From a virus, in IMG/VR virus record IMGVR_UViG_3300048836_000035: DNA of 44,940 nt. One strand, 5' to 3'. This document shows positions 1,572 through 40,180 of this stretch, piece after piece. Position numbers and translations under genes: made by a program. The notes beneath the pieces were generated by a model. That model was not told the DNA's origin. It made no database searches and saw only the letters and a list, made by a program, of their open reading frames with translations. How positions within the stretch are numbered: position 1 is the stretch's first letter; each line of letters starts with the position of its first letter.

Positions 1572-1580
1572 GGAACCAAC

Positions 1581-1724: not shown

Positions 1725-1726
1725 GC

Positions 1727-2032: not shown

Positions 2033-2090
2033 CACTCTGGCTTGTCGGCGCGGCTGCTGTGGCCCTACTGATCTTCTTAGGAACTAGACT

Positions 2091-2801: not shown

Positions 2802-2803
2802 CG

Positions 2804-4360: not shown

Positions 4361-5127
4361 TGTCGAACTACACCCAGAACGTCAGCTACGGTCCGAAGGA
4401 CGCCCTCACCACGGGCGACGCTGCGAAGCGTATCAAGGGCGTCGAGATCGACGCGGAGTTTGCGGAGATTGCTACGGCGATCTCCTCGAAGGAAGATACG
4501 GCGAACAAGGGCGCAGCCAACGGGTACTGCGGACTCGACGCAGGCGGCCTTGTGGTCAAGGCGGACCTCCCTGCTAGCGTCGTCTATAACGATGCGGCTG
4601 CGGCTCTGGGATCTACGCTCAGCGTGGCGGGGGCTACTACGCTGGCGGCCATGTCGGCTACGACTGGGGCGTTCTCCTCGAACACCACGGTAGGTGGGAC
4701 CCTCAACGTAACGGGCACGCTGACTGGTGCAGCCGGTGCGTTTACGTCCATGACCATCAGCGGCGTGTCGGTCCTTACGACCTCCTCGGGCCTAAATGCC
4801 AGCAACATCAATGCAGGCAGCATAAGCGCAGCCTACGTCCCGGTCGGCGCTGTCACGCAGCATCAGGCCAGCCTGAGCATTGCCGAGTCTCAGATTGCTG
4901 ACGGGGCCGTGTTTGGTCGCCTAGGCTCCACCGAGACGGTTACTGGCGCGTGGTCGTTCTCGGCTATGGGGGCCTCGACAATCACTGGCGCACTGACCCG
5001 CTCGACCATGGGCTCGCACCCGTACTTCGGGTCGTCCACCCAGAACAGCGGAAAGATCACCCTGTCCACCTCAGCAGCTTCCGGTACTCCGGGCGCTGGT
5101 GACATCTGGATCCAGTACACGGCGTAA
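4360..5127 (+). CDS. Tail fibre protein
   Basis: TAATG start/stop overlap. The N-terminus (KRIKGVEIDAEFAEIATAISSKEDTANKGAANGYCGLDAGGLVVKADLP) matches the common N-terminal pattern of phage tail fibres. The shaft is A/G/S/T-rich. Confidence 0.6.
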   Translation: MSNYTQNVSYGPKDALTTGDAAKRIKGVEIDAEFAEIATAISSKEDTANKGAANGYCGLDAGGLVVKADLPASVVYNDAAAALGSTLSVAGATTLAAMSATTGAFSSNTTVGGTLNVTGTLTGAAGAFTSMTISGVSVLTTSSGLNASNINAGSISAAYVPVGAVTQHQASLSIAESQIADGAVFGRLGSTETVTGAWSFSAMGASTITGALTRSTMGSHPYFGSSTQNSGKITLSTSAASGTPGAGDIWIQYTA

Positions 5128-5653: not shown

Positions 5654-5932
5654 ATGTTCGACGCCCTCAAATCACTGCTGGAGCTTATACCAGCTGTCGC
5701 TATCGTCCTATCTATAGGAATTGCATACGGAGTCTTAAAGGTGAAGAGTGCGACTACGGCCACACGCCTCGACCAGTTGGAAGCAGAAGCACTTAACCTT
5801 GACAGCGCGATGCGCGCGAGAGTGGACGGCATAGCTAGCGAGTTGTCGCAGCACAAGCACGACACGACGGACCGACTGGCCCGCATTGAAACAAAGTTGG
5901 ACATCCTGCTCCAACAGAACATCATCAAGTAA
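5654..5932 (+). CDS. Membrane-anchored coiled-coil protein (92 aa)
   Basis: N-terminal TM helix LIPAVAIVLSIGIAYGVL, then a heptad-like region. Confidence 0.55.
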   Translation: MFDALKSLLELIPAVAIVLSIGIAYGVLKVKSATTATRLDQLEAEALNLDSAMRARVDGIASELSQHKHDTTDRLARIETKLDILLQQNIIK

Positions 5933-5943
5933 GGTACAGACAC

Positions 5944-7254
5944 ATGCCCTTAATGGCAGCCGGTATCGGCGCAGTCGGTAGTATCGCGGGCGGCCTCATC
6001 GGAGGCAAGCCGTCGACTCCGAAGTACCGCCCCTTCGACGTGACGTCAGGCCTCGGTCTGGTGGACTACGACAAGAAGGGCCGGACCATCGACGCCACGC
6101 TCTCCCCGGAGCAGCAGGCGTTTGCGGACCAGTACAACCAGATTGCGCAGGGCTACCTCGGTGGTGGCTACGGCGGCCAGCAGGCGCAGGAGTGGATGCA
6201 GCAGGCAGGCGGGATGATCCCCGGCCTGTTCCAAGGCTCGCTGGATGCTTCGGCCATGGATCCGTACTCGCTTGCTGCGTACCAGCAGCAGTTGGGAGGG
6301 TTGCAGGGGCAGCTGGGCGGGATGTTTGGGGGTGCGGCTAACTACGGTGCGGGCATACTCGGAGGCCCGGCCCCCGGCGCGGCCCAGTCGAACCAGATGT
6401 TCGGCCTCGGCCAGCAGCTTGCGGGCAACAACTACAACGACGTGTACCAGCAGAGGCTCGGCCTTCTGCGCCAGCAGGCACAGCCGTACGAGCAGCGCGC
6501 TCAGGACTCGTTCCTTGGGCGGCAGTACGCAATGGGCCGCATGGGCACCACGGGTGGCCAGCGCGATATCGAGGCGTTCTCGACCGGCCTGAGTCAGGGT
6601 GACACGACCCGGCAGCTGGACGCGATGGGCTTGGCTGAGTCCCTGTACGGCAGGGATCAGGGTCTTGCTCAGGGCTACATGGGTCAGGGCTTGCAGGGCA
6701 TTCTGGGTGGCTTCGGTGCCCAGCAGCAGGCCGGTCAGGGCATGTTCGGCTTGGCTGGCCAGCTTGGACAGCAGCTTGGCGGTCTCTACGGGCAGGGCTT
6801 CGGCGCTGCGCAGGGCTTCAACGAGCTCACCAACCAGCGCGCACAGCAGCGGATGGCCAATGCCACGAACCTGTTTGGGTTTGGCTCGAACGTCAACACG
6901 CAGAACCTCCAGACCGGTACCGGTATGCAGGGGAACGCGGTCAACCTGTACCAGCAGTTGCTCGGCAACGCAGGCTACGGGCACACGGCTGGCGCTGGCG
7001 CTATGGCCGGTCAGGCCTACGCGGCTCAGTCCTTCCAGCCCAACGCGCTCGGCGCAGGCATTCAGGCGTTCAGCAACGGTATGCTCGCCAATCCGGCAGC
7101 CTTCGGCAGCCAGATCAAGGGCCTGTTCGGCGGAGGTGGTGCCCCGGCTCCGACCGTGGGCAGCTACGCCATGCAGCCGTTCAACGTGCCTAGTGGTGTG
7201 CAGAACATCCAGATGCCCAACTTCAACATCCTCCCCGGTGGAGGGAGCTTCTAA
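5944..7254 (+). CDS. Gly/Gln-rich internal virion (ejection) protein candidate
   Basis: 436 aa of low-complexity G/Q/A/M sequence, lying upstream of the SLT-containing protein. Confidence 0.5.
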   Translation: MPLMAAGIGAVGSIAGGLIGGKPSTPKYRPFDVTSGLGLVDYDKKGRTIDATLSPEQQAFADQYNQIAQGYLGGGYGGQQAQEWMQQAGGMIPGLFQGSLDASAMDPYSLAAYQQQLGGLQGQLGGMFGGAANYGAGILGGPAPGAAQSNQMFGLGQQLAGNNYNDVYQQRLGLLRQQAQPYEQRAQDSFLGRQYAMGRMGTTGGQRDIEAFSTGLSQGDTTRQLDAMGLAESLYGRDQGLAQGYMGQGLQGILGGFGAQQQAGQGMFGLAGQLGQQLGGLYGQGFGAAQGFNELTNQRAQQRMANATNLFGFGSNVNTQNLQTGTGMQGNAVNLYQQLLGNAGYGHTAGAGAMAGQAYAAQSFQPNALGAGIQAFSNGMLANPAAFGSQIKGLFGGGGAPAPTVGSYAMQPFNVPSGVQNIQMPNFNILPGGGSF

Positions 7255-8750
7255 TGGCGAATCCTCAGATGTATCCGGGCCTGCTCTCGCAGTTCGGCTT
7301 GGATCTCGACCCGGCCAAGATGAAGGAGCAAGACCTTCTCCTGAACCAGCAGCGCAACCTTGAGTTGGCTGGTGGGCTGGGCTACCGTGGCTCGGCAGCG
7401 GGTGCCGCTCAGGGCGGTGCCCTGTTCGCGGCTGCCCTTGCGAATCGGGGGTACAAGACCCCTGATCAAGACCAGCGGAAGATCGACACGGCCAAGCAGG
7501 CGACGCAGTTGATGGACGCGTGGAGGGCCAAGAACCCGGACGCCAAGGCTACCGACGCCTCCCTCCAGTACCAGAAGTTCCTTGCCGACTCTGCCTTCCG
7601 TAACGGGCTGGCCGACGTCGGTGCTTCGGTCATGGAACAGTACGAGACCAAGCGGATGCAGCGCGAGGCGCAGCAGCTTGAACTCAAGAACCTCGGCTTC
7701 GACTCGCGTATCAAGGAAGTGCAGGCCGACATGGCACCAGAGGAGGCCGAGCATCAGAAGTGGCTGTGGGGCCAAGAGGAGTGGCAGGATGTGTTCCCGG
7801 TCGGGGCCAACAACCCGAACACCGGCAAGCGCCTCAAGATCGACTCCGAAGGCAACATGACGGACAACCAAGGGAACGTCATCTATCAGGCTGGGGAGTA
7901 CACCTCAATCCGTCCGCAGGAGCTCACGTCGACCAACGGGGAAGGCGTCGAGCTAATGATGACCGACTCCGAGGCTGGCAAGAAGCGAGAGATCCAGACG
8001 GCCTTCGTGGAGATGATCGACGGTGTTACGGACGTTGCGAACATCATCGACAACGCGACTGCGCGGGATGGGAGCACTGACGTCCTAGGCTTCGGCGGAG
8101 CGGTCGCCGCTAAGTCTGTCGAGATCGCAGACAACATGACCTCGACGATGAACAACATCGGCAAGATGTTCGGCATCGCTCCGGGCGCAGTCGAGATCGA
8201 GATTCCCGGTGAGGTCGGCAAGAAGGGCCAGAAGAAGTACGCAGACCTGCGTGGTAGCGGGCAGAAGATCCTGCTTGAGAAGTACGGCAGACAGGTGGAC
8301 GGCGTGCTTCACGCCTACATCCCTGACGCCCTGCGGCTCACAGGTCAGGACGCCATCCGCATTCGACAGAACCTCATGAACGTGGCCTACGCGATCATGC
8401 GGTCGAAGGAGCCGGGCAACAACCGGTACTCGGACGCGGACTTCAAGAACGCTCTGGAACTTGCCGGTCAGGGATTGGCGGATCCCGAGAAGCTCAAGGC
8501 TACGTTGTACGACAACGTGAACCGGGCGGCTCGATCCTACGATCTGGCACTGGCTCAGACGGCTGGTATGCACGACCGGATCTGGTCGGCAGAGAGCAGA
8601 GAACTCACGGCTCGGAAGCGGGCCGAGTTCGACAAGCGGTTTGGCGGGTATGCGATTCCCACTGCACGTGGGGTAGCCCCGGTCAATAGCGGTCGTCCGG
8701 TCACGGTGACTGACGACGAGGGTGAGTGGCAGTTGTCCATCGCCCCATAA
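7254..8750 (+). CDS. Internal virion protein candidate
   Basis: 498-aa ORF with a start/stop overlap to the previous gene. Assigned by position within the internal-protein set. Confidence 0.5.
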   Translation: MANPQMYPGLLSQFGLDLDPAKMKEQDLLLNQQRNLELAGGLGYRGSAAGAAQGGALFAAALANRGYKTPDQDQRKIDTAKQATQLMDAWRAKNPDAKATDASLQYQKFLADSAFRNGLADVGASVMEQYETKRMQREAQQLELKNLGFDSRIKEVQADMAPEEAEHQKWLWGQEEWQDVFPVGANNPNTGKRLKIDSEGNMTDNQGNVIYQAGEYTSIRPQELTSTNGEGVELMMTDSEAGKKREIQTAFVEMIDGVTDVANIIDNATARDGSTDVLGFGGAVAAKSVEIADNMTSTMNNIGKMFGIAPGAVEIEIPGEVGKKGQKKYADLRGSGQKILLEKYGRQVDGVLHAYIPDALRLTGQDAIRIRQNLMNVAYAIMRSKEPGNNRYSDADFKNALELAGQGLADPEKLKATLYDNVNRAARSYDLALAQTAGMHDRIWSAESRELTARKRAEFDKRFGGYAIPTARGVAPVNSGRPVTVTDDEGEWQLSIAP

Positions 8751-26666: not shown

Positions 26667-26976
26667 GGCTCTGCTCCCGCGCAAGGAAGGCGTCGATGTT
26701 GGAAATCGCACGCATTACTGCACACGACTCTGCGTGTGGCCTGTAGTCTCTTACGTGACAGCACGATCTAACTCCGAACTCCGCGCCTTCTTCAAAGTCA
26801 CTATGCTCAGCGACTTCGATGAGCGTCACCCTTGTGCTGTGCAGGCACACATCGGCCTCGGCCAGCCGCGAGCGCAGACTCTCGATCTCAGCCTCGCGTG
26901 CCTCGTAGACCAGCGAGCACACGTCCCACTGGTGGGCGTCCAGCCCCAGTTCCTTGAACAGTTCGTGCTTGCTCAT
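26653..26976 (-). CDS. RLAEA-motif paralogue (107 aa)
   Basis: Contains AEIESLRSRLAEADVCL...NIDAFLARE. Shares a 22-bp identical DNA stretch with 26429-26450. Confidence 0.55.
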   Translation of the reverse strand: MSKHELFKELGLDAHQWDVCSLVYEAREAEIESLRSRLAEADVCLHSTRVTLIEVAEHSDFEEGAEFGVRSCCHVRDYRPHAESCAVMRAISNIDAFLAREQSHECR

Positions 26977-27755
26977 ACCGCCACCCCCAGCTTCTCACGG
27001 AAGCGTTCCACGTAGAAGTCCAGCGTAGACCCCTCGATGCCCGGTGCCGTGTTGACCTCCAGAACCCGAGCCTCCCCTGCGTTGTTGCACATGAGATCCA
27101 CCGCAGCGAAGTCCAATCCGAGCGCAGCTACCGCAGAGCAAGCCGTTGAAGTCACAGAATTGGGAGCCTCAATCTCCCGTGTGCAGTACACGTAGCCGTT
27201 GCGGTGGTTACGCACAGCGTTAGGCTCCGCTCCGTTGCGCCGCCGCTTCTTCTGCGCCAGATGGTACGGGCCGAACACGTGGACCCGGTACTCATGCTCG
27301 GCACGGAACCGCTTGGTGTACAGCGGGGCATCCGGCATATCGTCCTCCCCGATGGGCACGGCAGACTCGGGATCTACGATCTCGATTCCGCTGCCTCCCT
27401 GCCCCGTGGTAGAGTGGCGAGCGAACACCGTGTGTCCGCCCTGCGCCCACGCAAAGGCGAGCGCCCTGTCGGTCGTCCACTCCACCGTCGGCACCCGTGC
27501 CTCGGTCAGCGCCTTGAAGCAGGCCAGCTTGTCACGGGCCACAGCCACCCGGTCGAAACCGTTGAGCACGTTCACGAACCCACGCAGGGGCCTGCCCATC
27601 CCGTTGTGCCTGCCCCAGTTGATGAGCACGTCCCCGTCCCGTGACAGGAAGCGGCTGGTCCCATCCAGCTTGATGCGCTTGACGCGCAGGGCACGGGACA
27701 GCAGCTTGGCCGAGTTGCTCGGGCCGTAAGGAATGATTCTGATACGTCTACGCAT
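26973..27755 (-). CDS. ATP-grasp ligase (RimK-like)
   Basis: Start MRRRIRI follows aggagagg. C-terminus EYRVHVFG...NHRNGYVY...LGLDFAAVDLM...RVLEVNTAPGIEGST fits the ATP-grasp fold pattern. Confidence 0.75.
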   Translation of the reverse strand: MRRRIRIIPYGPSNSAKLLSRALRVKRIKLDGTSRFLSRDGDVLINWGRHNGMGRPLRGFVNVLNGFDRVAVARDKLACFKALTEARVPTVEWTTDRALAFAWAQGGHTVFARHSTTGQGGSGIEIVDPESAVPIGEDDMPDAPLYTKRFRAEHEYRVHVFGPYHLAQKKRRRNGAEPNAVRNHRNGYVYCTREIEAPNSVTSTACSAVAALGLDFAAVDLMCNNAGEARVLEVNTAPGIEGSTLDFYVERFREKLGVAV

Positions 27756-27767
27756 AGTCCTCTCCTG

Positions 27768-27783
27768 TGTCATACGTATGACA
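27768..27783. promoter_or_regulatory. Palindrome copy, 16/16, between the GATase stop and the ATP-grasp SD
   Basis: Stop at 27786-88. The - strand reads motif-caggagaggact-ATG (27755). Confidence 0.9.
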
Positions 27784-27785
27784 GG

Positions 27786-29198
27786 TTAGTGCAGGCCAAC
27801 GGCCAACTTCTGGTTGTCGTCAAAGCATCCGGGGCAGATGCACCGGCTGCCGTTGTTCACCCACCCGCAGATCTCTGCCTCGTCCGCCATCAGGCGGTCG
27901 CCGCATTGGTAGCACCCGTCAGCCGTGGCCTTGATCCACTCGTCGACCGGCACCCACTCCCCGTGTGCGGCAGGCACGTACTCTCCGCCCTTCAACCCGC
28001 CCCTGCGGTCAAGGGACGACACGTTCGCAGTACCAGAGTAATACGTCCGGTTCACCAGACGAGCCACGATCATCGGGTCCGCCCCCTTGTCCAGCCCACG
28101 CACGGCCACGGGCCGCACCGTCCACCGCTCCGCGTTGTCCTTGCAGTTCTCGACCGCCGAGTACAGGCAGTGCATCACCACAGCAGGGAGCAGCATACCG
28201 CCGTCCGGGTGGATGATGTTGCCCGACACGAGGGCTGTCGGCAGGCCAGCCACCGGGGTGACGAGGGACGGTACGAACAGGCAGTCCGTCTCGGCGTCAA
28301 GGTCATGCTCCAGCAGCATCAACTCACTTTCTTCGGGGACCTTTGTAGGGGCGGCGCTGCCCGACCACGGCGGCAGCGGGTTGCTTCTCCGGGGTGCGCT
28401 CCCCTGAGAGCCACCGCCGTACCATCCCGCCGAGCGACGGCTGCTGTAGGACGGCACGTACAAAGGGACCGACTGTACCTCGGGGACGGTACTACCGGGG
28501 CGGAAGGTCAGCAACTCTCCCGGCTTGGGGTACGCAATGGTCCCGCCGTGGAAGTTGTTGCGCTTAGCCAGCCAATGCAGCATCTCCGCCTCGCTCGCCA
28601 GTAGCACCGTGTCCTCGCACTCGGCGAAGTACATATGCAGGGGGCGCTTGTCATTGCGGATCACACGCACAGCGTTGTCCCGAGCGTCATGCCAGATCAG
28701 GGTGAACGCCCCGTCCAGCAGCTTGATGACCTCGGCAGGGTCGGTAGCCTCGGCCAGATTGTGCGCGATGGCGTGGCTGTCCACTTCCACCCCCTCGCCC
28801 TTCAACTCCCACAGGGACTTGCCCAAGTCGTAGGTGCTGTTGAGCGTGCCGTTGTGGACCAGCGTGATCGGCCCCTCTTGGAACGGGTGCGCGTTGTCCA
28901 CGCTGACTGTGCCCACCGTGGCCGAGCGGTTGTGCCCGATGACAGCCCGCAGGTCGCACGTGTTGGAGTATGTCATGCGGTCCTGATACTCCTTGCTGGC
29001 GACTAGCTCGTAGCCGTCGGCTGCGACCTTGAACCAGTCGGCAGCCTGACCGTCCTCCATCTTGTGCCCCACGGTGAAGATGCCCGTGCTGTCGTCACCG
29101 CGCACGGTGCCAGCAATGAGCGCGTTCTCCATGAACTTGCGGCGATCACCTGCGCCGCGCGCCTTCTCGTTGGTGATGAATCCTACTATTCCACACAT
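27786..29198 (-). CDS. Class-II (Ntn) glutamine amidotransferase-domain protein with C-terminal Cys-rich Zn-ribbon
   Basis: N-terminal MCGIVG nucleophile Cys2. HNRSATVG...NAHPF...LVHNGTL. C-terminal CYQCGD...CICPGC. Confidence 0.75.
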   Translation of the reverse strand: MCGIVGFITNEKARGAGDRRKFMENALIAGTVRGDDSTGIFTVGHKMEDGQAADWFKVAADGYELVASKEYQDRMTYSNTCDLRAVIGHNRSATVGTVSVDNAHPFQEGPITLVHNGTLNSTYDLGKSLWELKGEGVEVDSHAIAHNLAEATDPAEVIKLLDGAFTLIWHDARDNAVRVIRNDKRPLHMYFAECEDTVLLASEAEMLHWLAKRNNFHGGTIAYPKPGELLTFRPGSTVPEVQSVPLYVPSYSSRRSAGWYGGGSQGSAPRRSNPLPPWSGSAAPTKVPEESELMLLEHDLDAETDCLFVPSLVTPVAGLPTALVSGNIIHPDGGMLLPAVVMHCLYSAVENCKDNAERWTVRPVAVRGLDKGADPMIVARLVNRTYYSGTANVSSLDRRGGLKGGEYVPAAHGEWVPVDEWIKATADGCYQCGDRLMADEAEICGWVNNGSRCICPGCFDDNQKLAVGLH

Positions 29199-30205
29199 CA
29201 GACTTCTCCTTCCTCGTCAGAGGCTTCGGGTTCTGGTTCGTCGTAAATCTCGTCGTCTTCGTCGTATTCCGGCAGTTCGTCCTCGTCCCCATCCTCGTTG
29301 TCCAGAGTGGCGAACCTCTGAGTGGGCAGCCACGATCCAAGGTCAGGGCCGGGCTCGACCCCCTCGCCCACATCGAACGCACACGGCACTCCCCACCCTG
29401 ACTGTGCGTAGGTCACGGGCTGGAACAGCAGGGCTGTCTCGACCGCACCTAGATCGTGGAGCAGCGCCTCAAGTGCAGAGTCAGGCATATTGATCTGCTC
29501 GTACAGTTCCCCGAACAGCAGCTTGACTACTGCCGCAACCCCTTCCTGTGCGTACAGTTCGATGGGGTCGGGCAGCGTGTAGGCGTTAGCTGTCATACGT
29601 ATGACACGGACCCACGCTTCCAACTGCTCCGGGGTGTCGAACGTCCGAGCGTGCCGGAACTCCAGCGTACCGAACGTGCGCAGCGGACCAGCGAACAGTC
29701 CGCTGTACTTGCACGACTGGCGCAACGAGAACATGTCCCCAGAACGTAGCGCCCTGCTCACCAGCGCCGCCTCGTCGGGTGCCCTGTACCACGGCACGCA
29801 GAAGATGTTTTCCTCGCGCTCCGTGCCAGCCCACAGGAACACCAGCGGCTCGACCATAGCGTAGTACGTACAGATCCGCGCCACTTCATCGAAGGTACGC
29901 CCGAGCATATTGGCGTGGACGTGGATGCCCGTCCGTTCCGACGGCTCCCAATGCTTGCGCGTCTTGCCGTACAGGTAGTGAACGGCAGTCGCCACGTCGT
30001 CGGGTGGCAGGAACTTAGACACGAACTCAGCGCCAGAGTTCCGCAACGAGCCGTCGTCCTTGATGTGCCAGTACTTGGTCATCTTGTTCGCCAGTTCCAG
30101 TCTGGTACCCAAGTCGAACCTCTCGACCTCGACCTCGATGCCGTAGCCCTCGGTCGTGGGCGAGTTGAACTCGTTGGCCGAGTAGTCAGCGACGATAGGG
30201 GTCAT
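29198..30205 (-). CDS. Amidoligase (glutamine-synthetase-like, Amidoligase_2 pattern) with polyacidic C-terminal tail
   Basis: Motifs GIEVEVE, DGSLRNSGAEFVS, TGIHVHAN and GTLEFRHARTFD. ATGA coupling upstream and TGATG downstream. Confidence 0.8.
   Translation of the reverse strand: MTPIVADYSANEFNSPTTEGYGIEVEVERFDLGTRLELANKMTKYWHIKDDGSLRNSGAEFVSKFLPPDDVATAVHYLYGKTRKHWEPSERTGIHVHANMLGRTFDEVARICTYYAMVEPLVFLWAGTEREENIFCVPWYRAPDEAALVSRALRSGDMFSLRQSCKYSGLFAGPLRTFGTLEFRHARTFDTPEQLEAWVRVIRMTANAYTLPDPIELYAQEGVAAVVKLLFGELYEQINMPDSALEALLHDLGAVETALLFQPVTYAQSGWGVPCAFDVGEGVEPGPDLGSWLPTQRFATLDNEDGDEDELPEYDEDDEIYDEPEPEASDEEGEV
29591..29606. promoter_or_regulatory. Palindrome copy, 16/16, inside the amidoligase gene
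   Basis: Read in frame as R-V-I-R-M-T-A. Confidence 0.9.
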
Positions 30206-30867
30206 AGTTCCACCGTCCATTGCACTCTCCCATTCAGCGCCCGGTTGATGAGGCGACACGTCGTCGTGTCAGCGATAGGCTCCAGCAGCCCGCCGCTTTG
30301 AGTGGCAGCGACCTGCCCTCGGTAGTAGATCATGCGCTTACCCACTTGGTCCTGCGCCACGATGATGCGCCGATTGATGGCGATACTGAGCCATCCCTCA
30401 GCGAGCAGAGCAAGCGCCTCGTCCACGTTCGGCGGGTACCACGGAGCCCACAGATGGGGCACGGTATGCGCCGACAGGTTCTTGACCTGAGCGTACGCCA
30501 GAGAGCCACGCACCTTCCGCACCTCCCACCCACGAGGCACGACCACCTTCACCTGACGCCCGTTCAGCGTGCGCCGGTACTGCCGAGCCGGGATGCGCTC
30601 GACGCTGATCGCTACCTTGTGAGTCGGGATGTTGATGCTCCCGCAGATGGGCCACCACCCTGCGATCCGGGAGACAGGGCAAGTCGTCCGTTCCTCAAAG
30701 CGACTGCTCGCCTTGCGGATACGAGCGTATCGCTCGCTCCCGTCGTCGTCCACGAGGCGGTCGTAGATGGCAGGCTCGTAGCCCCCGCCTGTATCCACGA
30801 TGCAATAGCCCCCGCCTAACCATTGGGCTAGGTCGTCAGCCGATATGCCTTCCGGCAACTCAATCAT
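30202..30867 (-). CDS. Hypothetical protein (221 aa) inside the ligase cassette
   Basis: SD ggaggg. No motif recognised. Confidence 0.6.
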   Translation of the reverse strand: MIELPEGISADDLAQWLGGGYCIVDTGGGYEPAIYDRLVDDDGSERYARIRKASSRFEERTTCPVSRIAGWWPICGSINIPTHKVAISVERIPARQYRRTLNGRQVKVVVPRGWEVRKVRGSLAYAQVKNLSAHTVPHLWAPWYPPNVDEALALLAEGWLSIAINRRIIVAQDQVGKRMIYYRGQVAATQSGGLLEPIADTTTCRLINRALNGRVQWTVEL

Positions 30868-31223
30868 TTTGCACCCTCCATTTGTTGTACGTATGACACG
30901 GACGCGACGTTGACGGGCACCAGTACGAACGCAGCAAGGGCACGCGCCTCTGCTGGCGTCACCTTGCGCTTGGGCGGCTCCGGTGTGGGAGGCGGGATCG
31001 CCGTGCCACTCTCCGGGTACTTCATCTGCACGTGAACGGACTCGACCGGATCACCTTCCAGCGCCACCATCTGCAACGCACGCCGCTCCGCTTCCTCCGC
31101 ACTCAGGCACAGGAACTCGCACATGTACGTGCTGGCGTTCTCGCCTGAGGTAGTCACCTTCACGGTGTACCACTTCAGGCCGAGTTGGTTAGGCGTTTGC
31201 ACGGACGAACTCCCGCTCGTCAT
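30864..31223 (-). CDS. Hypothetical protein (start uncertain)
   Basis: ORF between the GGCT gene and the 221-aa gene. Several candidate starts. Confidence 0.35.
   Translation of the reverse strand: MTSGSSSVQTPNQLGLKWYTVKVTTSGENASTYMCEFLCLSAEEAERRALQMVALEGDPVESVHVQMKYPESGTAIPPPTPEPPKRKVTPAEARALAAFVLVPVNVASVSYVQQMEGAK
30883..30898. promoter_or_regulatory. Degenerate palindrome copy (14/16), 15 nt upstream of ATG 30867
   Basis: tgtTGtacgtatgaca. The right half and flank (atgacacggac) are identical to the copy at 29591. Confidence 0.6.
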
Positions 31224-31623
31224 CGGTCGGCAGCCACACCTGCGTGCCATGCACGTAGTCGACGGACGGCTTGACCGCGAGGTACGAGTGCGGCAGGAAG
31301 TACGCCCACGCTCCCTTCCACGGGGTCTGCACCTTGTGCCGACAGTAGTAGTCGGGGTGGCCCTCGATCATGTCCAGCATATCCAGCTGGCCCTTGCTGA
31401 TCCGATAGACCTCACCGAGGATCAGCGTCTCGGTCTTGTCGGTCGGAGTGTGCACCAGTCCGGGGTAGTAGTGCAGGTCCAGCATCCTGTACTGCCCGCG
31501 CAGCACGCACCGCCCGAGCAGGTCTGCACCTGACAGCGCGGAGTGATTGCCGCGCCCCTGCTTGAGCGATCCGTACACGAACACACGGATGCCCTGCGAA
31601 TCAACCTTCGTTTCATCAGCCAT
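31189..31623 (-). CDS. Gamma-glutamyl cyclotransferase (AIG2/GGACT-like)
   Basis: Motifs VFVYGSLKQGRGNH, YPGLV, LGEVYRI and LDMIEGHPDYY. Confidence 0.8.
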   Translation of the reverse strand: MADETKVDSQGIRVFVYGSLKQGRGNHSALSGADLLGRCVLRGQYRMLDLHYYPGLVHTPTDKTETLILGEVYRISKGQLDMLDMIEGHPDYYCRHKVQTPWKGAWAYFLPHSYLAVKPSVDYVHGTQVWLPTDDEREFVRANA

Positions 31624-32465
31624 TAGAGAATCTCCAGTCCAAAGTCAGACACATACTCCCGCAACTGGTACGCAAGCGTACCGTCTGCGGTCCCAATCGC
31701 ACGTCGCACGTCAGCCCACGGCATCTCGTTGTAGATGCGCCGCACTTCCTGCTCTCCACGCGCCAGCACGCCCATCGCACCGAACGCCATGCTCCCCACG
31801 TGCAGCGCCGAGCGCGTCGTCATGGTCCACGAGTTGCCGAGTGTGCGGTACTCGATCCCGTAGCGGGTAGGTCGGTAGCGTCCGGGGCTGCCGTAGAACT
31901 GCCGACGCTTGCCCTGATTGTCCATGTTGTGGACCAGAGCAGGCAGCCCGATCATCAGGTCGCAGATTGTGGCAGCCACGAAGTCGGGGCACTCCCACCC
32001 GAGGTATTCGCGGTAGCCCAAGTGGACGTGCCCACCTGCGAAGCGCCACGCTCCGCCCGGTTCCGTCAACTCGGACGGCTGGATGCGGGGCAGCGGAGCG
32101 CCCTGCTCGTAGGCGTTGAAGTCCGGGCTGCACCCGAACATCTGCGCCTGAGGGTTGGCGAGGGCCGCCTCGTTGAAGAACACCGAGCAGTCCGGCCACG
32201 CCTGCACCCCCGGCACCGTCTGCCGCAGCTTGGCAAGCGCCAACTGCCTGCCTCGCACCACCACGTCCGCGAAAGAGTGCGGGTCGGACACGGGCGGCAC
32301 GTTGTACTCCGCCATCACGTTGTCCTCTTGCACCGCGAACCCACTTCCGGCCCCGCCAACGGGGATCGGTTTGTCCTTCGTCCCACCGAGCAGCCCAACA
32401 ATGGGCAGCACGCTGTTCCCATCACGAGTGATGAAGAACTCAGGATCAGCGCCTATCGTGAACAT
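31623..32465 (-). CDS. phiEco32-type COOH-NH2 ligase (type 2 amidoligase)
   Basis: MFTIGADPEFF...VQEDNVMAEYNVPP...GCSPDFNAY...FAGGHVHLG...RYGIEYRTLGNSW matches the family pattern, recalled from memory. Confidence 0.8.
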   Translation of the reverse strand: MFTIGADPEFFITRDGNSVLPIVGLLGGTKDKPIPVGGAGSGFAVQEDNVMAEYNVPPVSDPHSFADVVVRGRQLALAKLRQTVPGVQAWPDCSVFFNEAALANPQAQMFGCSPDFNAYEQGAPLPRIQPSELTEPGGAWRFAGGHVHLGYREYLGWECPDFVAATICDLMIGLPALVHNMDNQGKRRQFYGSPGRYRPTRYGIEYRTLGNSWTMTTRSALHVGSMAFGAMGVLARGEQEVRRIYNEMPWADVRRAIGTADGTLAYQLREYVSDFGLEIL

Positions 32466-35280: not shown

Positions 35281-35976
35281 TTACGCGGCTTTCTTTGTCT
35301 CGCCAGCTTCGCCCGTTGCGATTGCCAGCACGTGCGCGAGAATCTTTTGAGTCTCAACGCAGTCGGCCACGGTCAGGGCCGGCGCGGCTTTCGCAATCTG
35401 CTCGCACAGCAGAACCACGGACGCGCGAGCCTTGTCCGCCTCGGACATGGTAGCGGCCGCAGTCTTGGCAGCCTCCGCCGCCTCCGCCTTGCCTTTCGCA
35501 TCGCGAATCTTGCCGAACGTGAGCGGCTTGCCGTCCTTGTCCGTCAACTTGACGCCGAGCTTATACGCGCCCGTCATCATGCTGACCGCCGTTGACAGTC
35601 CCCGCGGCACGTTGTAGGTCACGGTCCCGTCCTTGCGCGGCTTGGATGCCGAGCAATTGCACGCGACCGCTATCCCGTCCTTATTGCTGGAAATGTCAGC
35701 CTTCCAGCCTTCCCACGCCGTCGCGAAAGTCTCGGCATTGCCAGCTTCGACCGCGATCAGAACCGCTGCGTCGTAGTTGCCGGTCCGGTCCTTATTCAAG
35801 GCGGCCTGTCCAATCTCCACGTTACGCGCGGAGACTGTCGCAGCCTTGAGCATATCCCGCAAATGCGCGAGCTTGCCGGCAACACTTTCTTCCGTGGTCG
35901 GCACTACTCGCGACGTTGCGACGTTGCTGGAAACGACCACGGGCGAACCCTTGCGGCTTGTCTTAGCTTTGCTCAT
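35281..35976 (-). CDS. Early protein of unknown function (231 aa)
   Basis: First ORF of the leftward block. A/K/T-rich. Followed by its own terminator. Confidence 0.65.
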   Translation of the reverse strand: MSKAKTSRKGSPVVVSSNVATSRVVPTTEESVAGKLAHLRDMLKAATVSARNVEIGQAALNKDRTGNYDAAVLIAVEAGNAETFATAWEGWKADISSNKDGIAVACNCSASKPRKDGTVTYNVPRGLSTAVSMMTGAYKLGVKLTDKDGKPLTFGKIRDAKGKAEAAEAAKTAAATMSEADKARASVVLLCEQIAKAAPALTVADCVETQKILAHVLAIATGEAGETKKAA

Positions 35977-36318
35977 TTTCCATTTCCTTTCATTGGTGGA
36001 TTGTGGCTTGCCTTTCCTGTGCTCGCGTAGCAGGCAGCAAGCCCGTAGTCGCTACGCAAGCCGCAAGGATTCCGCGCGTAGCCTTTCCGCTACGTCCGGT
36101 CCTTGCGCTAGTTGTTAAAGAGCATCCGACGATGCTGTACCGTTGCCGACCTAGCGCCCCATCAATCCGCGCGGCATCCCGCGCCCCATGTCCGGGCCTA
36201 TCAGTCAGCTAGGGTTTTAAAGAGCATCAACGTAGCGTGAAGCTACAGTTGCCGTTATACGCGCATCCGGCACGCAATGCAATACCCGAGTGCAAAAAAA
36301 TTCCGGGCCGTTCTACCT

Positions 36319-36334
36319 TGTCATACGTATAACA
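36319..36334. promoter_or_regulatory. Palindrome copy, 15/16 (core G to A), at the head of the leftward block
   Basis: TGTCATACGTATaACA, 343 nt upstream of ATG 35976. Confidence 0.8.
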
Positions 36335-36351
36335 TGGCCCGAATCTTGCAC

Positions 36352-36367
36352 GGCACGAACCATGCCA
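36352..36367 (-). promoter_or_regulatory. Weaker -24/-12-like site just upstream of palindrome 36319-36334
   Basis: The - strand reads TGGCATGGTTCGTGCC. Confidence 0.3.
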
Positions 36368-36523
36368 ACCCGCAGGTAGATTATGTTAAATGACCCGGAT
36401 AGCACCATATATGTATGAGAGCCGCGTCCCCATGCTGTGACCGCATTAGAAGCCCGTAGCAAGGCGCAAGGCTCTACCCTGTACCCTTGCCTACCCTTGA
36501 CCGCGATCGTGCAGCCTTGCGAG

Positions 36524-36544
36524 TTATCCACAGAATTATCCACA
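36524..36544 (+). promoter_or_regulatory. Two tandem perfect DnaA boxes
   Basis: TTATCCACA at 36524-32 and 36536-44, 12 bp start to start. Confidence 0.75.
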
Positions 36545-36566
36545 GGCTAACCCATTGATTTGTAAG

Positions 36567-36582
36567 GTTGCTATTTAGCAAC
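36567..36582. repeat. Inverted repeat GTTGCTA-tt-TAGCAAC
   Basis: Perfect 7-bp arms, 23 bp from the DnaA boxes. Confidence 0.8.
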
Positions 36583-36615
36583 ACTTCCCATGCTGGCGCA
36601 CGGGGTAACGTGTCT

Positions 36616-36631
36616 TGGCATGATAGTTGCA
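36616..36631 (+). promoter_or_regulatory. Sigma-54-type -24/-12-like site or iteron
   Basis: TGGCATGATAGTTGCA. GG and GC are at the consensus spacing (TGGCACG-N4-TTGCA). Confidence 0.5.
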
Positions 36632-36662
36632 TAGCGTGCTACGGTCGCAGCTTCGCTGCTCT

Positions 36663-36678
36663 TGGCATGATCCTTGCA
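36663..36678 (+). promoter_or_regulatory. Sigma-54-type -24/-12-like site or iteron
   Basis: TGGCATGATCCTTGCA. The 20-bp context cTTGGCATGAT..TTGCATA is shared with the site at 36616. Confidence 0.5.
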
Positions 36679-36701
36679 TACCTTGACCCCATGCCATGCC
36701 A

Positions 36702-36717
36702 TGCAATAACCATGCCA
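36702..36717 (-). promoter_or_regulatory. Sigma-54-type -24/-12-like site or iteron
   Basis: The - strand reads TGGCATGGTTATTGCA. Confidence 0.5.
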
Positions 36718-36734
36718 CTCCGACCGCATCAGGT

Positions 36735-36750
36735 TGGCATACATCTTGCA
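36735..36750 (+). promoter_or_regulatory. Sigma-54-type -24/-12-like site or iteron
   Basis: TGGCATACATCTTGCA. Confidence 0.45.
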
Positions 36751-36795
36751 TATCCCCCCCGGATGGGGGTAGGTTACATAATGCACAGATGACCA

Positions 36796-36811
36796 TGCAC
36801 AATCCGCGCCA
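36796..36811 (-). promoter_or_regulatory. Weaker -24/-12-like site
   Basis: The - strand reads TGGCGCGGATTGTGCA. Confidence 0.3.
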
Positions 36812-36864
36812 CTTGACATAAGCTCTTGGTGGTGGTGGTGGTTTAACAATAAACATGGACCACA

Positions 36865-36880
36865 TGCATCTTTCATGCCA
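36865..36880 (-). promoter_or_regulatory. Sigma-54-type -24/-12-like site or iteron
   Basis: The - strand reads TGGCATGAAAGATGCA. Confidence 0.4.
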
Positions 36881-36900
36881 CATTACATAACGCAGCACCA

Positions 36901-36916
36901 TGCAAGAATCGTGCCA
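36901..36916 (-). promoter_or_regulatory. Sigma-54-type -24/-12-like site, perfect consensus
   Basis: The - strand reads TGGCACGATTCTTGCA. Confidence 0.55.
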
Positions 36917-36917
36917 T

Positions 36918-36947
36918 GTGACATAATCACGGCCATGTTGACATAAT
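36918..36947 (+). promoter_or_regulatory. Rightward sigma-70-type promoter with extended -10, plus an overlapping second TGaCATAAT at 36919-36927
   Basis: GTGACA (36918-23), 18-nt spacer, TGaCATAAT (-10 at 36942-47). A tandem gtgacataatc motif lies 20 bp upstream. Confidence 0.55.
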
Positions 36948-37223
36948 CTTGGGCCGGGGGCACCCCCCTGCCGTGCAGGCAGGAAAGCGAATGCACCCAA
37001 AGACGCTGATGAGGGGAGGAATAGCTGATTTAACAGCAGTAGGCCCAGAGGCGGGGCATGGAGAGCCCCGAGACCCGGAAGGTCGGCCCGCTGGGCCTCT
37101 GGCGCGACTGACTAAAAACAGGGGTGCAAAGGTCGATCGGTCCACGAGAGACCGACCTCAAGGGCAGAATAGTGCAAGGTAATTCAACACCTAATACACA
37201 ACTAAACAATCTCATCAACAGAA

Positions 37224-37262
37224 TGCATAATTTTGACGTTTTTCGGTCTATACTAGGTATAG
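37224..37262 (+). promoter_or_regulatory. 39-bp bipartite promoter-like element, copy B
   Basis: The + strand reads TGCATAA-N14-GGTCTATACTAGGTATAG, 160 nt upstream of the first late gene. Same spacing as copy A, and 24/25 specified positions are identical. Confidence 0.6.
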
Positions 37263-37421
37263 AGGACGGGGAGGACGTACAACTAGACGACCCGTACGAT
37301 ACCGCCGTTGGGCGGCGGGTATCGAGGGAGCAAGGTACGGACGTGCCATGCGACCGTGCCCGTCGCCTCGGCGGAATAAGAACAGAGGCGCACCAGCGCC
37401 GATTTCTAGGATCATCCTACT

Positions 37422-38189
37422 ATGTCTCCAGAGATGAAGAAGAAGCTGGTCGAGCTCCAAGCGAGAGCCAGCCTTGCTTCTATTGCAATACCGTCTCCCT
37501 TCGGGGACGCCGTCGGTCTAGCAGCCGATGGGCTGGGTTACGCAGTAGACCCGTCCCAGCGCACGCCCTTGAACTTTGGGTTGACTGCGGCAGGTCTCTT
37601 GCCCTTCGTTCCGGCTAGCTCCGTCCTCAGACGTGCCACGGACGCCACCCAGAAGGCTCGTCCCGAGCTTTTCGACGACGAGGCGGCAGAGGTAGCCAAG
37701 AGGGCTCTGGACCGCCCCACGAGCTCCGTAGGCCGTGCAGTAGCCGCTACGATCAGCCCTGAGGAACAGTTCGCGCTTGCTCGCGCTGTCAACAAGGGCA
37801 ATCCCCGTGCCATGCAGGTACCAGATAAGGACGGCCCGGAAGTCGACGCGGTAATCAAAGCTCTTGACGCCCGTAGAGGCAAGGCAGCTGCTCCGGCAGC
37901 TACACCTACTAAGTTCGTCCCAGACTACGGCGGCAGATTCTTCAAGGAGACGCCGCGAGGACCGGGCCAACTGACGTTCAAGAGCTCGGTACACTTAAAG
38001 GACGGTTCCCGTCTGTCTGGGTTCAACGACCGAGACCAGACCGTGCTCTATGGGTACACTAAGAACGGAGATCTATTTACGCTTCGCCGTGAGTTCCTTG
38101 ATCCAACCAAGATCGTAGGCTCTAGGGACAGCGGAAAGACGGCTGAAATGCTACGAACAGTCATGGGATCTGCTAAGAATGTCAAGTAA
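37422..38189 (+). CDS. Hypothetical protein, first gene of the rightward block (255 aa)
   Basis: Long ORF with no recognisable motif. Confidence 0.65.
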   Translation: MSPEMKKKLVELQARASLASIAIPSPFGDAVGLAADGLGYAVDPSQRTPLNFGLTAAGLLPFVPASSVLRRATDATQKARPELFDDEAAEVAKRALDRPTSSVGRAVAATISPEEQFALARAVNKGNPRAMQVPDKDGPEVDAVIKALDARRGKAAAPAATPTKFVPDYGGRFFKETPRGPGQLTFKSSVHLKDGSRLSGFNDRDQTVLYGYTKNGDLFTLRREFLDPTKIVGSRDSGKTAEMLRTVMGSAKNVK

Positions 38190-38532
38190 GGACACCCAAT
38201 TCCCGGCAGGTACCTCAGGGAACCCGTCGGGTCGACCTAAGGGGTCGAAGAACAAGATCACGCTCCAGAAGATGATGCTGGAGGAGCAGCTTCGGGATGC
38301 CTCGATGGCGAGGATGCCCGAGGTTCTCGATAAGGCGTTCGAGTTGGCCCTCCAAGGCGACCGGACCATGCTCAAACTGCTCCTTGAACTGCATATGTCC
38401 AAGGGTATCTCGGAAGAGAAGCAGGCCCAAGAGAAGGTTTCCATCCAAATTACCACCAATACCCCGGCTGAGAAGCGGAAGGAAGAGGTGGCACTAGAGA
38501 CAGCGCAAGAGGTTATCGAAAATGGCAAGTAA
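38179..38532 (+). CDS. Small-terminase-like protein (DUF5681 pattern)
   Basis: FPAGTSGNPSGRPKGSKNK is characteristic of that family. Lies upstream of TerL. Confidence 0.55.
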   Translation: MSSKDTQFPAGTSGNPSGRPKGSKNKITLQKMMLEEQLRDASMARMPEVLDKAFELALQGDRTMLKLLLELHMSKGISEEKQAQEKVSIQITTNTPAEKRKEEVALETAQEVIENGK

Positions 38533-38668
38533 CAAGGAATGCATCCCGGCTTCCACCGGTCCCGGATTCAAGCCCCCGGCTGCTCCGACCCAGAAGAAGG
38601 CCCCTCCGTCGGGTGCCCAGTCCCTCAAGACGTCCCCGAACTCGCACTCGCGCGGTAAGGGCGACTGA
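38522..38668 (+). CDS. Possible 48-aa Pro/Lys-rich protein (below track cutoff)
   Basis: ATG follows gagg. MASNKECIPASTGPGFKPPAAPTQKK... Confidence 0.25.
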   Translation: MASNKECIPASTGPGFKPPAAPTQKKAPPSGAQSLKTSPNSHSRGKGD

Positions 38669-38669
38669 T

Positions 38670-38906
38670 ATGCCGATCCCCAAGGTTCGAGTTAAGGGCG
38701 GCATTGCAGGGCAGGTCAAGGAGACTGCCATGGACGTTGCCTATGCAGCGGCCAAGGGGGTCGAGAAGGCTAAGGCGGTTGCCCGTGAGGGCATTGCTCA
38801 GGTAGCCCGAGACGGTGCTCTTGCTAACGCCATGGCCGACGTAAAGCGTCGTACGAACGACGTCGAGAACCCGGCTAGCGGGGACCCGTACAAAAAGAGG
38901 AAGTAA
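38670..38906 (+). CDS. Hypothetical protein (78 aa)
   Basis: Start MPIPKVRVKGG is preferred over the track's 38613. Confidence 0.45.
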   Translation: MPIPKVRVKGGIAGQVKETAMDVAYAAAKGVEKAKAVAREGIAQVARDGALANAMADVKRRTNDVENPASGDPYKKRK

Positions 38907-40180
38907 TGCGCGTAAGTTTGCACGACAAACAGGCTGAGATCTTCTATGATCCGACCCGGTTCAAGGTCGTGGCAGCTGGACGACGCTTCGGCAAGTCCTA
39001 TCTCGCAGCAGTTACTCTCTTCGTAGAGGCCTCCAAGACCTCCAAGGTCCGGTCAGATGGTGTTACCGTCGATCTGGCCTTGGAGGAAGTATACTACGTA
39101 GCCCCCACGTTCGACCAAGGCAAGAAGATCCTGTGGCCCCTCCTCAAGGAACTCGGCCACGAGTTGATCGCCAACAAGTGGGAGAACACCGGGGAGCTAC
39201 TGCTCATCAACGGGCGTCGTATCTCGATCAAGGGATCGGATAGGCCCGACTCTCTCCGTGGCGTAGGCTTGTCCTACGTCGTCATGGACGAATATGCGTT
39301 CATGAAGGAAGAGGTGTGGGAACTGATCATCAGCCCAGCCCTCACGCGCACTGAGGGCGGTGCCTTGTTCATCGGTACCCCCGATGGCAAGAACCACTTT
39401 TACACGCTGTACCGGCGTGGCCTGTCCGGTGATCCGGACTGGAAGTCGTGGCACTTCGCCTCAGAGACCAACCCCTTCCTGCCTAGGAAGGAGATCGAAA
39501 TGGCTCGGGGCCGCATGGCCCTTGACCGGTACAAGCAGGAGTACGAGGCGTCGTTCGAGGGTGGCGCTGGTATCGTCCTCACTCGGGACATGTTCCCGAT
39601 TGTCGACACGATCCCGTCCCCCGGCGATTACTACGTCGCGTGCGACTTGGCAGGGTTCGAGGCCACAGAGGGTGGCCGGAAGCTTGCTCGACTGGACGAC
39701 CACGCTATCGCGGTTGTCCTGAATCACCAAGGTGGGTGGTGCATCACGGACATCATCCACGGCCAGTGGGACACCAGAGAGACGGCTCTCCGCATCGTTA
39801 AGGCATATCGGGACAACCGTCCCAACCTGCTAGGGATCGAGAAGGGCATGAGCCGCAACGCGGTGATGCCGTACTTGGCCGACGAGATGAACCGGTTGGG
39901 GATCTTCTTCACCCCGCAGGACGTTACCCACGGCAACAACAAGAAGACGGACCGCATCGCTTGGGCGCTGCAAGGTCGTGCCGAGAAGGGCCGGATCCAA
40001 CTGCTGAGAGGCAAGTGGAACGCCGCCTTCCTTGAGCAGGCGGAGGACTTCCCGTCCCCGCAGGCGCACGACGACTTGCTAGACGCAGTTGCGTACATCG
40101 ACCAGCTTTCTGAGCCGTGGTTCGATGGCCCCGACTATGTGGACAACTGGAAACCCATGGACGCTTACGCGGGCTATTAA
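38906..40180 (+). CDS. terL: Terminase large subunit
   Basis: Walker A (AAGRRFGKSY) and Walker B (YVVMDEYAF). Nuclease motifs CDLAGFE...DDHAIAVV and HDDLLDAVAY. Confidence 0.9.
   Translation: MRVSLHDKQAEIFYDPTRFKVVAAGRRFGKSYLAAVTLFVEASKTSKVRSDGVTVDLALEEVYYVAPTFDQGKKILWPLLKELGHELIANKWENTGELLLINGRRISIKGSDRPDSLRGVGLSYVVMDEYAFMKEEVWELIISPALTRTEGGALFIGTPDGKNHFYTLYRRGLSGDPDWKSWHFASETNPFLPRKEIEMARGRMALDRYKQEYEASFEGGAGIVLTRDMFPIVDTIPSPGDYYVACDLAGFEATEGGRKLARLDDHAIAVVLNHQGGWCITDIIHGQWDTRETALRIVKAYRDNRPNLLGIEKGMSRNAVMPYLADEMNRLGIFFTPQDVTHGNNKKTDRIAWALQGRAEKGRIQLLRGKWNAAFLEQAEDFPSPQAHDDLLDAVAYIDQLSEPWFDGPDYVDNWKPMDAYAGY

Follow-up and report, generated by a model that had tools for sequence, protein, structure and literature searches.

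Genome setting of the control region

The stretch of DNA considered here, IMG/VR virus record IMGVR_UViG_3300048836_000035 (44,940 nucleotides, the whole of which we call the window), behaves as the complete ~45-kb genome, at ~60% GC, of a virulent-type tailed phage, and our subject is a cluster of sites resembling promoters that depend on RpoN (sigma-54), an alternative sigma factor, in the control region between its two diverging gene arms. The rightward arm extends from 37422 past the window end to ~17000 and carries DUF5681, the large terminase subunit (TerL), an SU10-like portal and structural genes, and the leftward arm, from 35976 to 17435, carries the early genes together with primase, DnaB-like helicase, PolA and exonuclease (Pfam and PHROG scans). 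A non-coding region of 1.4 kb (35977-37421) separates the arms and contains the cluster; the open reading frames (ORFs) predicted over the array match no PHROG family, in keeping with their earlier dismissal as artefacts. The genes that border the region are as follows.

35281..35976, minus strand: first gene of the leftward (early/replication) arm, 231 aa, without a Pfam or PHROG family match
37422..40180, plus strand: start of the rightward arm, with a 255-aa gene, DUF5681 (38179-38532), a 97-aa gene and TerL (38906-40180), assigned by Pfam and PHROG scans

Nucleotide searches with the control region and 20 kb of the genome revealed no DNA similarity to any cultured phage. Three different queries, used in protein searches, likewise gave no close cultured relative of TerL, the nearest cultured TerL being <45% identical, and for this reason the host cannot be named.

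Nine RpoN-type sites in the window

An original prediction, made by a model from the letters and their open reading frames, had listed eight sites fitting the -24/-12 consensus around this junction. All eight are present exactly where it placed them, and a ninth, which it did not list, lies at 36335 on the plus strand; every one of the nine keeps GG and GC at the exact -24/-12 spacing. The sites are given below with two scores in bits, the first from a position weight matrix (PWM) built on 29 Salmonella sigma-54 sites supported by chromatin immunoprecipitation (table in PMC3844500), and the second from a PWM trained on arrays of other phages only.

36335-36350, plus strand: weak site TGGCCCGAATCTTGCA; 13.3 and 18.0 bits
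36352-36367, minus strand: weak site TGGCATGGTTCGTGCC; 9.4 and 13.9 bits
36616..36631, plus strand: RpoN-type site TGGCATGATAGTTGCA, rightward, predicted start ~36642; 22.8 and 27.0 bits
36663..36678, plus strand: RpoN-type site TGGCATGATCCTTGCA, rightward, repeat family D2; 20.7 and 23.5 bits
36702..36717, minus strand: RpoN-type site TGGCATGGTTATTGCA, leftward, to the early arm; 22.0 and 23.5 bits
36735..36750, plus strand: RpoN-type site TGGCATACATCTTGCA, rightward, family D2; 21.5 and 25.6 bits
36796..36811, minus strand: weak RpoN-like site TGGCGCGGATTGTGCA, leftward, family D1; 13.1 and 12.1 bits
36865..36880, minus strand: RpoN-type site TGGCATGAAAGATGCA, leftward, family D1; 20.0 and 20.2 bits
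36901..36916, minus strand: RpoN site TGGCACGATTCTTGCA, family D1, outermost of the early-directed sites; 22.6 and 26.3 bits

Six of these sites agree in sequence with genuine RpoN sites. Scored by leave-one-out, the genuine Salmonella sites have a median of 18.6 bits and a minimum of 14.4, and the six window sites, at 20.0-22.8 bits, stand above that median. The comparison with shuffled sequence that had been proposed at the outset returned 0.12 sites per genome at or above 17.2 bits on the Salmonella PWM (40 Markov-1 shuffled genomes). The window has 22 copies of the bare pattern TGGC-N8-TGC, where shuffles have 9.3 +/- 2.9, and 9 of the 22 are inside 36335-36916; the nine top window hits of the phage-array PWM (12.1-27.0 bits) all fall in that same interval, the next best scoring 9.4 bits. 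These shuffles, together with the reversed-motif control described below, rule out a chance origin of the cluster. Individual gradings in the original prediction fared equally well: the site at 36901-36916, called a perfect match, has 12/12 consensus positions, and the two called weaker, 36811-36796 and 36367-36352, score 13.1 and 9.4 bits, the former below the weakest genuine Salmonella site (14.4).

Neighbouring sites in the window array are spaced 33-72 bp apart. The plus-strand repeat TTGGCATnAT..TTGCATA, already noticed by eye of the model, was recovered as the 19-nt family D2, and the minus-strand sites at 36796, 36865 and 36901 belong to a 30-nt repeat, family D1. The two weak sites at the left edge, 36335(+) and 36352(-), form a face-to-face pair (36335..36367) with their -12 ends 1 bp apart; the start-to-start distance of 17 bp lies inside the 17-21 bp mode of such convergent pairs in other phages (83 of 111). 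A further RpoN-like site, TGGCACGGGGATTGCC at 37797-37812 (minus strand), lies antisense within the 255-aa gene and scores 11.7 bits, under the range of genuine sites.

Conservation and spread of the arrays

The suggestion that the repeat be sought in relatives proved fruitful, in that the motif is conserved in both diverged and unrelated phages. Among 80 IMG/VR relatives retrieved via TerL, strict copies (TGGCAY-N5-TTGCW) number 19 in 733 kb against ~1.4 expected, and nearly all of them fall in the intergenic DNA between the diverging arms, upstream of the packaging genes. Relatives carrying the motif range from 40 to 61% GC. In L003 and L009/L011 both flanking genes are shared with the window, so these regions are positionally homologous to it, and an 18-mer, TTGGCATGATAGTTGCAT, at window 36615-36632 recurs identically in L003 and L033. 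The 231-aa early protein has homologues at the equivalent position in L003 and L009 and none there in L030, L050 and L033, where the first leftward gene is unrelated to it, which makes the product of this neighbouring gene a poor candidate for the binder; a search for relatives that started from the 231-aa protein found none. One close relative, L001, was dropped as an array-free comparator: its TerL is 87% identical, but its gene order upstream of TerL differs and its junction lies outside the fetched DNA. A scan of bacterial genomes yielded a single phage contig, L081 (JASJCT010000065.1, 43,977 bp), binned with a Myxococcota metagenome-assembled genome; it is probably a complete phage genome, with a TerL 69% identical to that of the window, and its divergent junction holds no RpoN-like sites.

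Beyond these relatives, an IMG/VR scan for two strict sites 20-50 bp apart found tandem pairs in at least 119 contigs, and the reversed motif under an equal gap rule found 0. The contigs span 33-64% GC and 1-223 kb; TerL or portal is held in common with the window phage in 59 of the 119 listed, and unrelated terminases also accompany arrays (phrog_51/phrog_2 in L305; phrog_309/phrog_4758 in L246 and L285). Densities of 5-12 sites per 800 bp are frequent. The most extreme case, the 147,530-bp contig L230, packs 40 RpoN-like sites into 6.5 kb where convincing ORFs are few; nine of these sites, on the minus strand between plus-strand blocks (5746-6445), repeat every 27 bp, and L225 carries 19 sites over 3 kb (1421-4451), nearly all on one strand. 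The finding is real and more general than first seen, and the arrangement is widespread in uncultivated phages. We found no description of dense phage RpoN-site arrays in the searchable literature.

Identity of the reader of the motif

A profile was compiled from 546 clustered sites in 120+ phage loci, selected only on TGGC-N8-TGC. Upstream of the core it reads -31 A 0.50, -30 R 0.71, -28 R 0.68 and -27 Y 0.84; within the core, -22 A 0.97, -21 C 0.56 / T 0.43, -20 G 0.78 and -19 R 0.79; and on the -12 side, -15 T 0.92, -11 A 0.77 / T 0.18 (A/T 0.95) and -10 W. Positions -22, -21, -20, -15 and -11 are biased, since they were part of the pattern that fetched many of the loci. Those outside the fetch pattern (-31, -30, -28, -27, -19 and -10) also agree with the extended RpoN consensus, which reportedly reads mrNrYTGGCACGrNNNTTGCWNNw and is said to have been set out by Barrios et al. 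in 1999. Taken together, the profile, the fit to the Salmonella matrix and the spread over unrelated phages argue for host sigma-54 as the binder, and this spread disfavours a phage-specific binder co-evolving with its sites; we consider it very probable that sigma-54, a host factor whose recognition sequence is universal, binds the motif. The original prediction had offered sigma-54-dependent promoters or a decoy for the RNA polymerase holoenzyme that contains sigma-54 (E-sigma54): the Salmonella matrix, the extended consensus and the conservation uphold this proposal as regards the identity of the binder.

A DnaA/IHF module and other elements of the control region

The two DnaA boxes that had been noted beside the sites are present at 36524 and 36536, and an integration host factor (IHF) site follows them. 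These and two further elements at the right edge of the array are listed here.

36524..36544, plus strand: two perfect DnaA boxes TTATCCACA, starts 12 bp apart, the only two in the window (~0.34 expected)
36548..36560, minus strand: IHF consensus site AATCAATGGGTTA (WATCAANNNNTTR), the only consensus match in the 44.9-kb window
36918..36947, plus strand: candidate sigma-70-type promoter, rightward, GTGACA-18-CATAAT with TG, 10/12 matches
36951..36972, plus strand: G5-CA-C6-TG hairpin on the right-hand border of the array, close to where the sigma-70-type promoter is predicted to start

A block of ~50 nt containing the DnaA-DnaA-IHF series (CGATCG..GCGAGTTATCCACAGAMTTATCCACAGGCTAACCCATTGATT, window 36505-36565) is nearly identical at L031 2226-2285, where TerL is only 51% identical to that of the window and the DNA flanking the block does not align. 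Both the window and L031 have a plus-strand RpoN site 55-70 bp downstream of the block. Relative to the predicted start of 36616(+), the IHF centre lies at ~-88 and the DnaA boxes at ~-118 to -98, an enhancer-like placement that would suit the geometry of an enhancer-IHF-promoter unit. The adjacency of the DnaA-box pair and the IHF consensus site makes it likely that an origin adjoins the array; the pair and the IHF site probably constitute a replication origin, to which transcription from the array may be coupled. The region showed no clear AT-rich unwinding element.

Tandem DnaA boxes also flank sites in L068, L022 and L079, and perfect DnaA boxes are ~12-fold denser within 500 bp of arrays than elsewhere, yet they occur in only 9 of 126 array loci. 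As an extended unit, GTTATCCACAGrNTTATCCACAGG, tandem boxes are found in at least 120 very diverse viral contigs (L082-L201; 28-70% GC), frequently three or more in succession. Across 120 contigs chosen for their tandem DnaA boxes, the density of sigma-54-like sites is 0.031/kb near the boxes versus 0.045/kb far from them, and a general pairing of DnaA boxes with RpoN sites was rejected. An IHF-type element, AATCAATGACTTA, stands 6-7 bp upstream of a leftward site's TGGC in both L030 (4634-4646) and L050 (1953-1965). In L022 it recurs in four copies among the DnaA boxes (2608-2874), and there too IHF-like sites are found a short way upstream of -24/-12 sites. A shared enhancer in L030 and L050 was also considered and rejected, the alignment showing conservation of the IHF site and the core motif only.

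TGACATAAT elements stand back to back with leftward RpoN sites, and the site at 36901-36916 shares bases with the -35 zone that goes with the rightward extended -10 element TGTGACATAAT. The short sequence (T)TRACATAA(T) occurs in five copies between 36774 and 36949; those at 36919 and 36939 look like extended -10 sigma-70 elements (TGnCATAAT, plus strand), and three copies, each set off by 2 bp from a leftward RpoN site at its -26 end, form with it the 30-nt family D1. No leftward sigma-70-like promoter was found in the control region, whereas the rightward arm has one, and most clade members carry, at the equivalent position, a G-run followed by TTGAC(A/T) and a TATAAT-like promoter facing DUF5681/TerL. 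A G5-N2-C6-TG hairpin is also present in L003/L292 (L003 ~1063-1080), L009/L011 (L009 ~6892-6908) and L068 (~533-548), 35-55 bp beyond the right-hand side of the outermost leftward site; as a universal enhancer it was rejected, being present in only 3 of 57 clade loci.

Several observations on the region stand apart from these. The early-arm leader (35977-36345, minus strand) has strong predicted RNA folding (-147.9 kcal/mol, z = -4.3) and holds a tandem duplication of ~100 nt, marked by TTAAAGAGCATC at 36115 and 36217; the control region matched no Rfam family. A (TGG)5 microsatellite lies at 36827-36843, between two leftward sites. Elsewhere in the window, a minus-strand cassette at 26973-32465 encodes a RimK-like glutaminyl transferase, a class II glutamine amidotransferase, an amidoligase, a gamma-glutamyl cyclotransferase and a phiEco32-type COOH-NH2 ligase. 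This glutamine-metabolism cassette belongs to the arm faced by the leftward sites, and a tie to NtrC-type activation is a mere thought. ARAGORN called a 98-nt tRNA-Leu(CAG) at 7377-7474 within a 498-aa ORF (7254-8750), which is probably a false positive or a tRNA-like element in coding sequence.

A proposed battery of host-read promoters

Sigma-54 holoenzyme is the only bacterial polymerase unable to start transcription without an ATP-driven activator. We read the cluster as a battery of promoters of the host RpoN type, set at the divergent junction beside the DnaA/IHF origin module, and would give this reading, which is drawn from sequence comparison, a probability of roughly 0.6. The minus-strand sites (36916, 36880 and 36717, with the weak 36811 and 36367) would recruit E-sigma54 for transcription of the leftward early/replication arm, and the plus-strand sites (36616, 36663 and 36735, with the weak 36335) would drive rightward transcription, the multiplication of near-consensus copies perhaps improving the odds of catching a scarce holoenzyme. 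Because the phage encodes no AAA+ enhancer-binding protein, open complex formation would call for a host activator, acting from solution or through the IHF-bent upstream region, or else for an unrecognised phage factor; some bacterial enhancer-binding proteins (bEBPs) act from solution on any closed complex (PMC3844500). The two DnaA boxes with the IHF site would be the likely origin, and transcription from the array may help its activation.

The placement and orientation of arrays in relatives bear directly on this reading. Flanking gene families that recur all read away from the arrays. The 59 distinct loci of the clade supply 300 sites, of which 213 face the early arm and 87 the late arm; simple arrays of 2-5 sites face the early arm with few exceptions. 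In L305 and L246 the sites face terS/terL instead. Leaders predicted to run to the first ORF measure 141 nt at the median (interquartile range 99-192). The gene most often found next to arrays in relatives is DUF5681, whose median distance from them is 279 bp (56 loci). The orientation bias and the leader lengths would favour promoters, and the dense packing of many arrays elsewhere would favour a binding array.

Several findings weigh against promoter function. No enhancer-binding protein turned up when the window and 2.8 Mb of related loci were searched by tblastn with E. coli PspF, a probe that recovers PspF itself at E ~1e-184 and NifA, ZraR, NtrC1, FleQ, FlrC, LuxO and VpsR at E <=1e-40. 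Among the early-arm ORFs, scanned against Pfam and PHROG, there was likewise no AAA+ activator, sigma factor or RNA polymerase. The absence of an activator gene noted in the original prediction is thereby confirmed, and it is hard to explain why the early arm of a lytic phage should depend on an activator that the phage does not carry. The reading further assumes that the host carries rpoN. In an unbiased sample, the 41 clade members that were retrieved through TerL and have 2.5 kb or more of upstream sequence, 6 carry an array, which is therefore a sporadic, exchangeable module. Geometry raises additional difficulties. Since plus- and minus-strand sites are interleaved in the window, transcripts of each set would cross the other set. 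Leaders in the window measure 500-900 nt; ~715 nt separate the first gene from the innermost of the strong leftward sites, far above the clade median. In arrays elsewhere, same-strand neighbours peak at 25-29 and 36-38 bp, convergent pairs lie 17-21 bp apart and divergent pairs 24-26 bp apart. The footprint of the holoenzyme is, by our estimate, ~30 bp or more; RNA polymerase cannot occupy such close neighbours together, and thus not every site can be an independent promoter. The pairs termed convergent would in fact give divergent starts ~20 bp apart, and may be compact bidirectional units serving one polymerase at a time.

Alternative explanations

The main alternative, which we judge unlikely, is that dense near-consensus arrays are a widespread phage device trapping sigma-54 or E-sigma54 as silent closed complexes, so that occupancy and not initiation is the main job of the array. 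Sigma-54 might be titrated from host regulons, shutting down functions such as stress, RNA repair and envelope, and the array might also block the adjacent rightward sigma-70 promoter and act as an early-to-late timer, the late promoter being freed once genome copies exceed the sigma-54 pool of the cell. A sub-variant would retain bEBP-free activation, through a new phage factor or DnaA bound at the enhancer position. The regular dense packing seen in many phages, with arrays of 8-12 sites and the extreme of L230, is readily accommodated here, as are the failure to find an activator gene and the overlap of 36901-36916 with the rightward -35 zone. Scored on one and the same matrix, array sites reach 20.0 bits at the median and genuine promoters 17.6, a difference that thresholding biases upward. 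Moreover, E-sigma54 forms stable, silent closed complexes (PMC3844500), and non-productive as well as intragenic sigma-54 sites are documented in E. coli and Salmonella (PMC4591121, PMC3844500); as the holoenzyme binds stably without transcribing, sigma-54 binding sites need not be promoters. Those bacterial sites are single, scattered and mostly weaker, in contrast to the phage sites, which are intergenic, arrayed and near-consensus. Trapping requires neither the bias of simple arrays toward one arm nor sensible leader lengths, however, and the window array, at its 33-72 bp spacings, is sparser than the extreme cases. What a lytic phage would gain from titrating sigma-54 is conjecture.

Improbable as a complete account, and compatible with a promoter battery rather than exclusive of it, is the proposal that the region is primarily an origin, in which DnaA and IHF would nucleate opening and the flanking -24/-12 promoters would activate the origin through transcription or prime bidirectional replication with RNA, a part that promoters play at the origins of T7 and lambda. 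That the genome has its perfect DnaA boxes and its single IHF consensus match nowhere but in this cluster is consistent with it, and so are the near identity of the block in L031 amid unalignable flanks and the enrichment of DnaA boxes around arrays. The phage also encodes its own primase, DnaB-like helicase and PolA, yet has no recognisable initiator: scans of the early-arm ORFs against Pfam and PHROG found no Rep-like protein, a negative that is not absolute, as proteins without a family remain. The cumulative GC-skew minimum falls at the control region, but skew tracks gene orientation and is therefore not independent evidence of an origin. Against an origin as the primary role stand the rarity of DnaA boxes near arrays, in just 9 of the 126 loci, and the frequency of tandem boxes in viral contigs that lack sigma-54 sites.

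Less credible still is the notion that the sites serve a phage protein, whether as iterons for an unrecognised initiator, which was the second proposal of the original prediction, or as packaging (pac) sites for the small terminase subunit (TerS), and that their likeness to sigma-54 sites is coincidental. Repeats of 16-20 bp, arrayed in both orientations and adjoining DnaA boxes and an IHF site, would suit iterons, and the proximity to arrays of DUF5681, which lies upstream of TerL, would suit pac, as would the abutment of the array on terS in L305 and L246. Yet the motif is the RpoN consensus down to its flanking positions and is common to three unrelated TerS/TerL families, to differing first early genes and to genomes of 33-64% GC; iterons and pac sites are, as far as we know, lineage-specific. 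The pac version fails because three unrelated TerS families accompany the same motif, and in the window, L009 and L030 the array moreover lies 1.3-5 kb from DUF5681/TerL, DUF5681 itself being a family without an assigned function. The iteron version fails because no Rep gene was found and the repeat is not replicon-specific, the same 16-nt motif occurring in phages with unrelated terminases and unrelated neighbour genes.

Comparison with known systems

To our knowledge, use of sigma-54 by phages is thought to be rare, with Pseudomonas phage YuA the cited exception. According to the citing passages of PMC5053324 and bioRxiv 10.1101/2023.10.13.562163, YuA requires host sigma-54 (Ceyssens et al., 2008). 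This precedent, and the spread of arrays described above, temper the earlier remark that sigma-54 dependence would be very unusual for a phage. As far as these sources describe it, YuA resembles the window phage in having no RNA polymerase of its own and -24/-12 promoters read by host RpoN, and no enhancer-binding protein is annotated in 50 kb of its GenBank record. Its three annotated -24/-12 fragments differ in being single, dispersed and located in the late structural region, with 8-9 of 12 core positions in our scan, whereas the window has six near-consensus sites in 300 bp, on both strands and at the early/late junction, and sites of the clade are mostly early-facing. The phage arrays are set apart from YuA by their strength, number, packing and position and, for the most part, by their direction. 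The terS/terL-facing sites of L305 and L246 bring to mind YuA, in which the sigma-54 promoters serve late genes.

Classical sigma-54 promoters such as nifH, glnAp2 and Pu, which are organised as an upstream activating sequence, an IHF site and the -24/-12 element, match the window in core and extended consensus and in the upstream IHF site, and sites for a DNA-bound AAA+ protein lie at ~-100 of 36616(+). The difference is that these are DnaA boxes and not a known bEBP enhancer, that the sites are multiplied and interleaved, and that there is no linked activator gene. The T7 promoters A1, A2 and A3 are tandem early promoters read by sigma-70 holoenzyme, and offer a parallel in stacking strong host-polymerase promoters at the entry to the early region; here the sigma factor is enhancer-dependent, and the spacing in many arrays is far tighter. 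Iteron origins (P1 oriR/incA, RK2 oriV, pSC101 and R6K gamma) carry iterons of ~17-22 bp beside DnaA boxes and IHF sites, and incA titrates. The repeat array of the window likewise adjoins two DnaA boxes and one IHF site, but no Rep gene was found, and the repeat is a universal RpoN motif present in at least 119 viral contigs, including those of unrelated phages.

Implications

We are presented with a complete phage genome whose main control region is built of RpoN sites and in which no activator gene was found. If the sites are promoters, there would be an unknown route by which lytic phages fire enhancer-dependent promoters, and rpoN would be a determinant of host range and resistance for a large uncultured group. 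If they are instead sinks for sigma-54, they would represent a new, DNA-based form of host takeover. In either event the elements are short and portable, and may provide compact, strong sigma-54 parts for synthetic biology.

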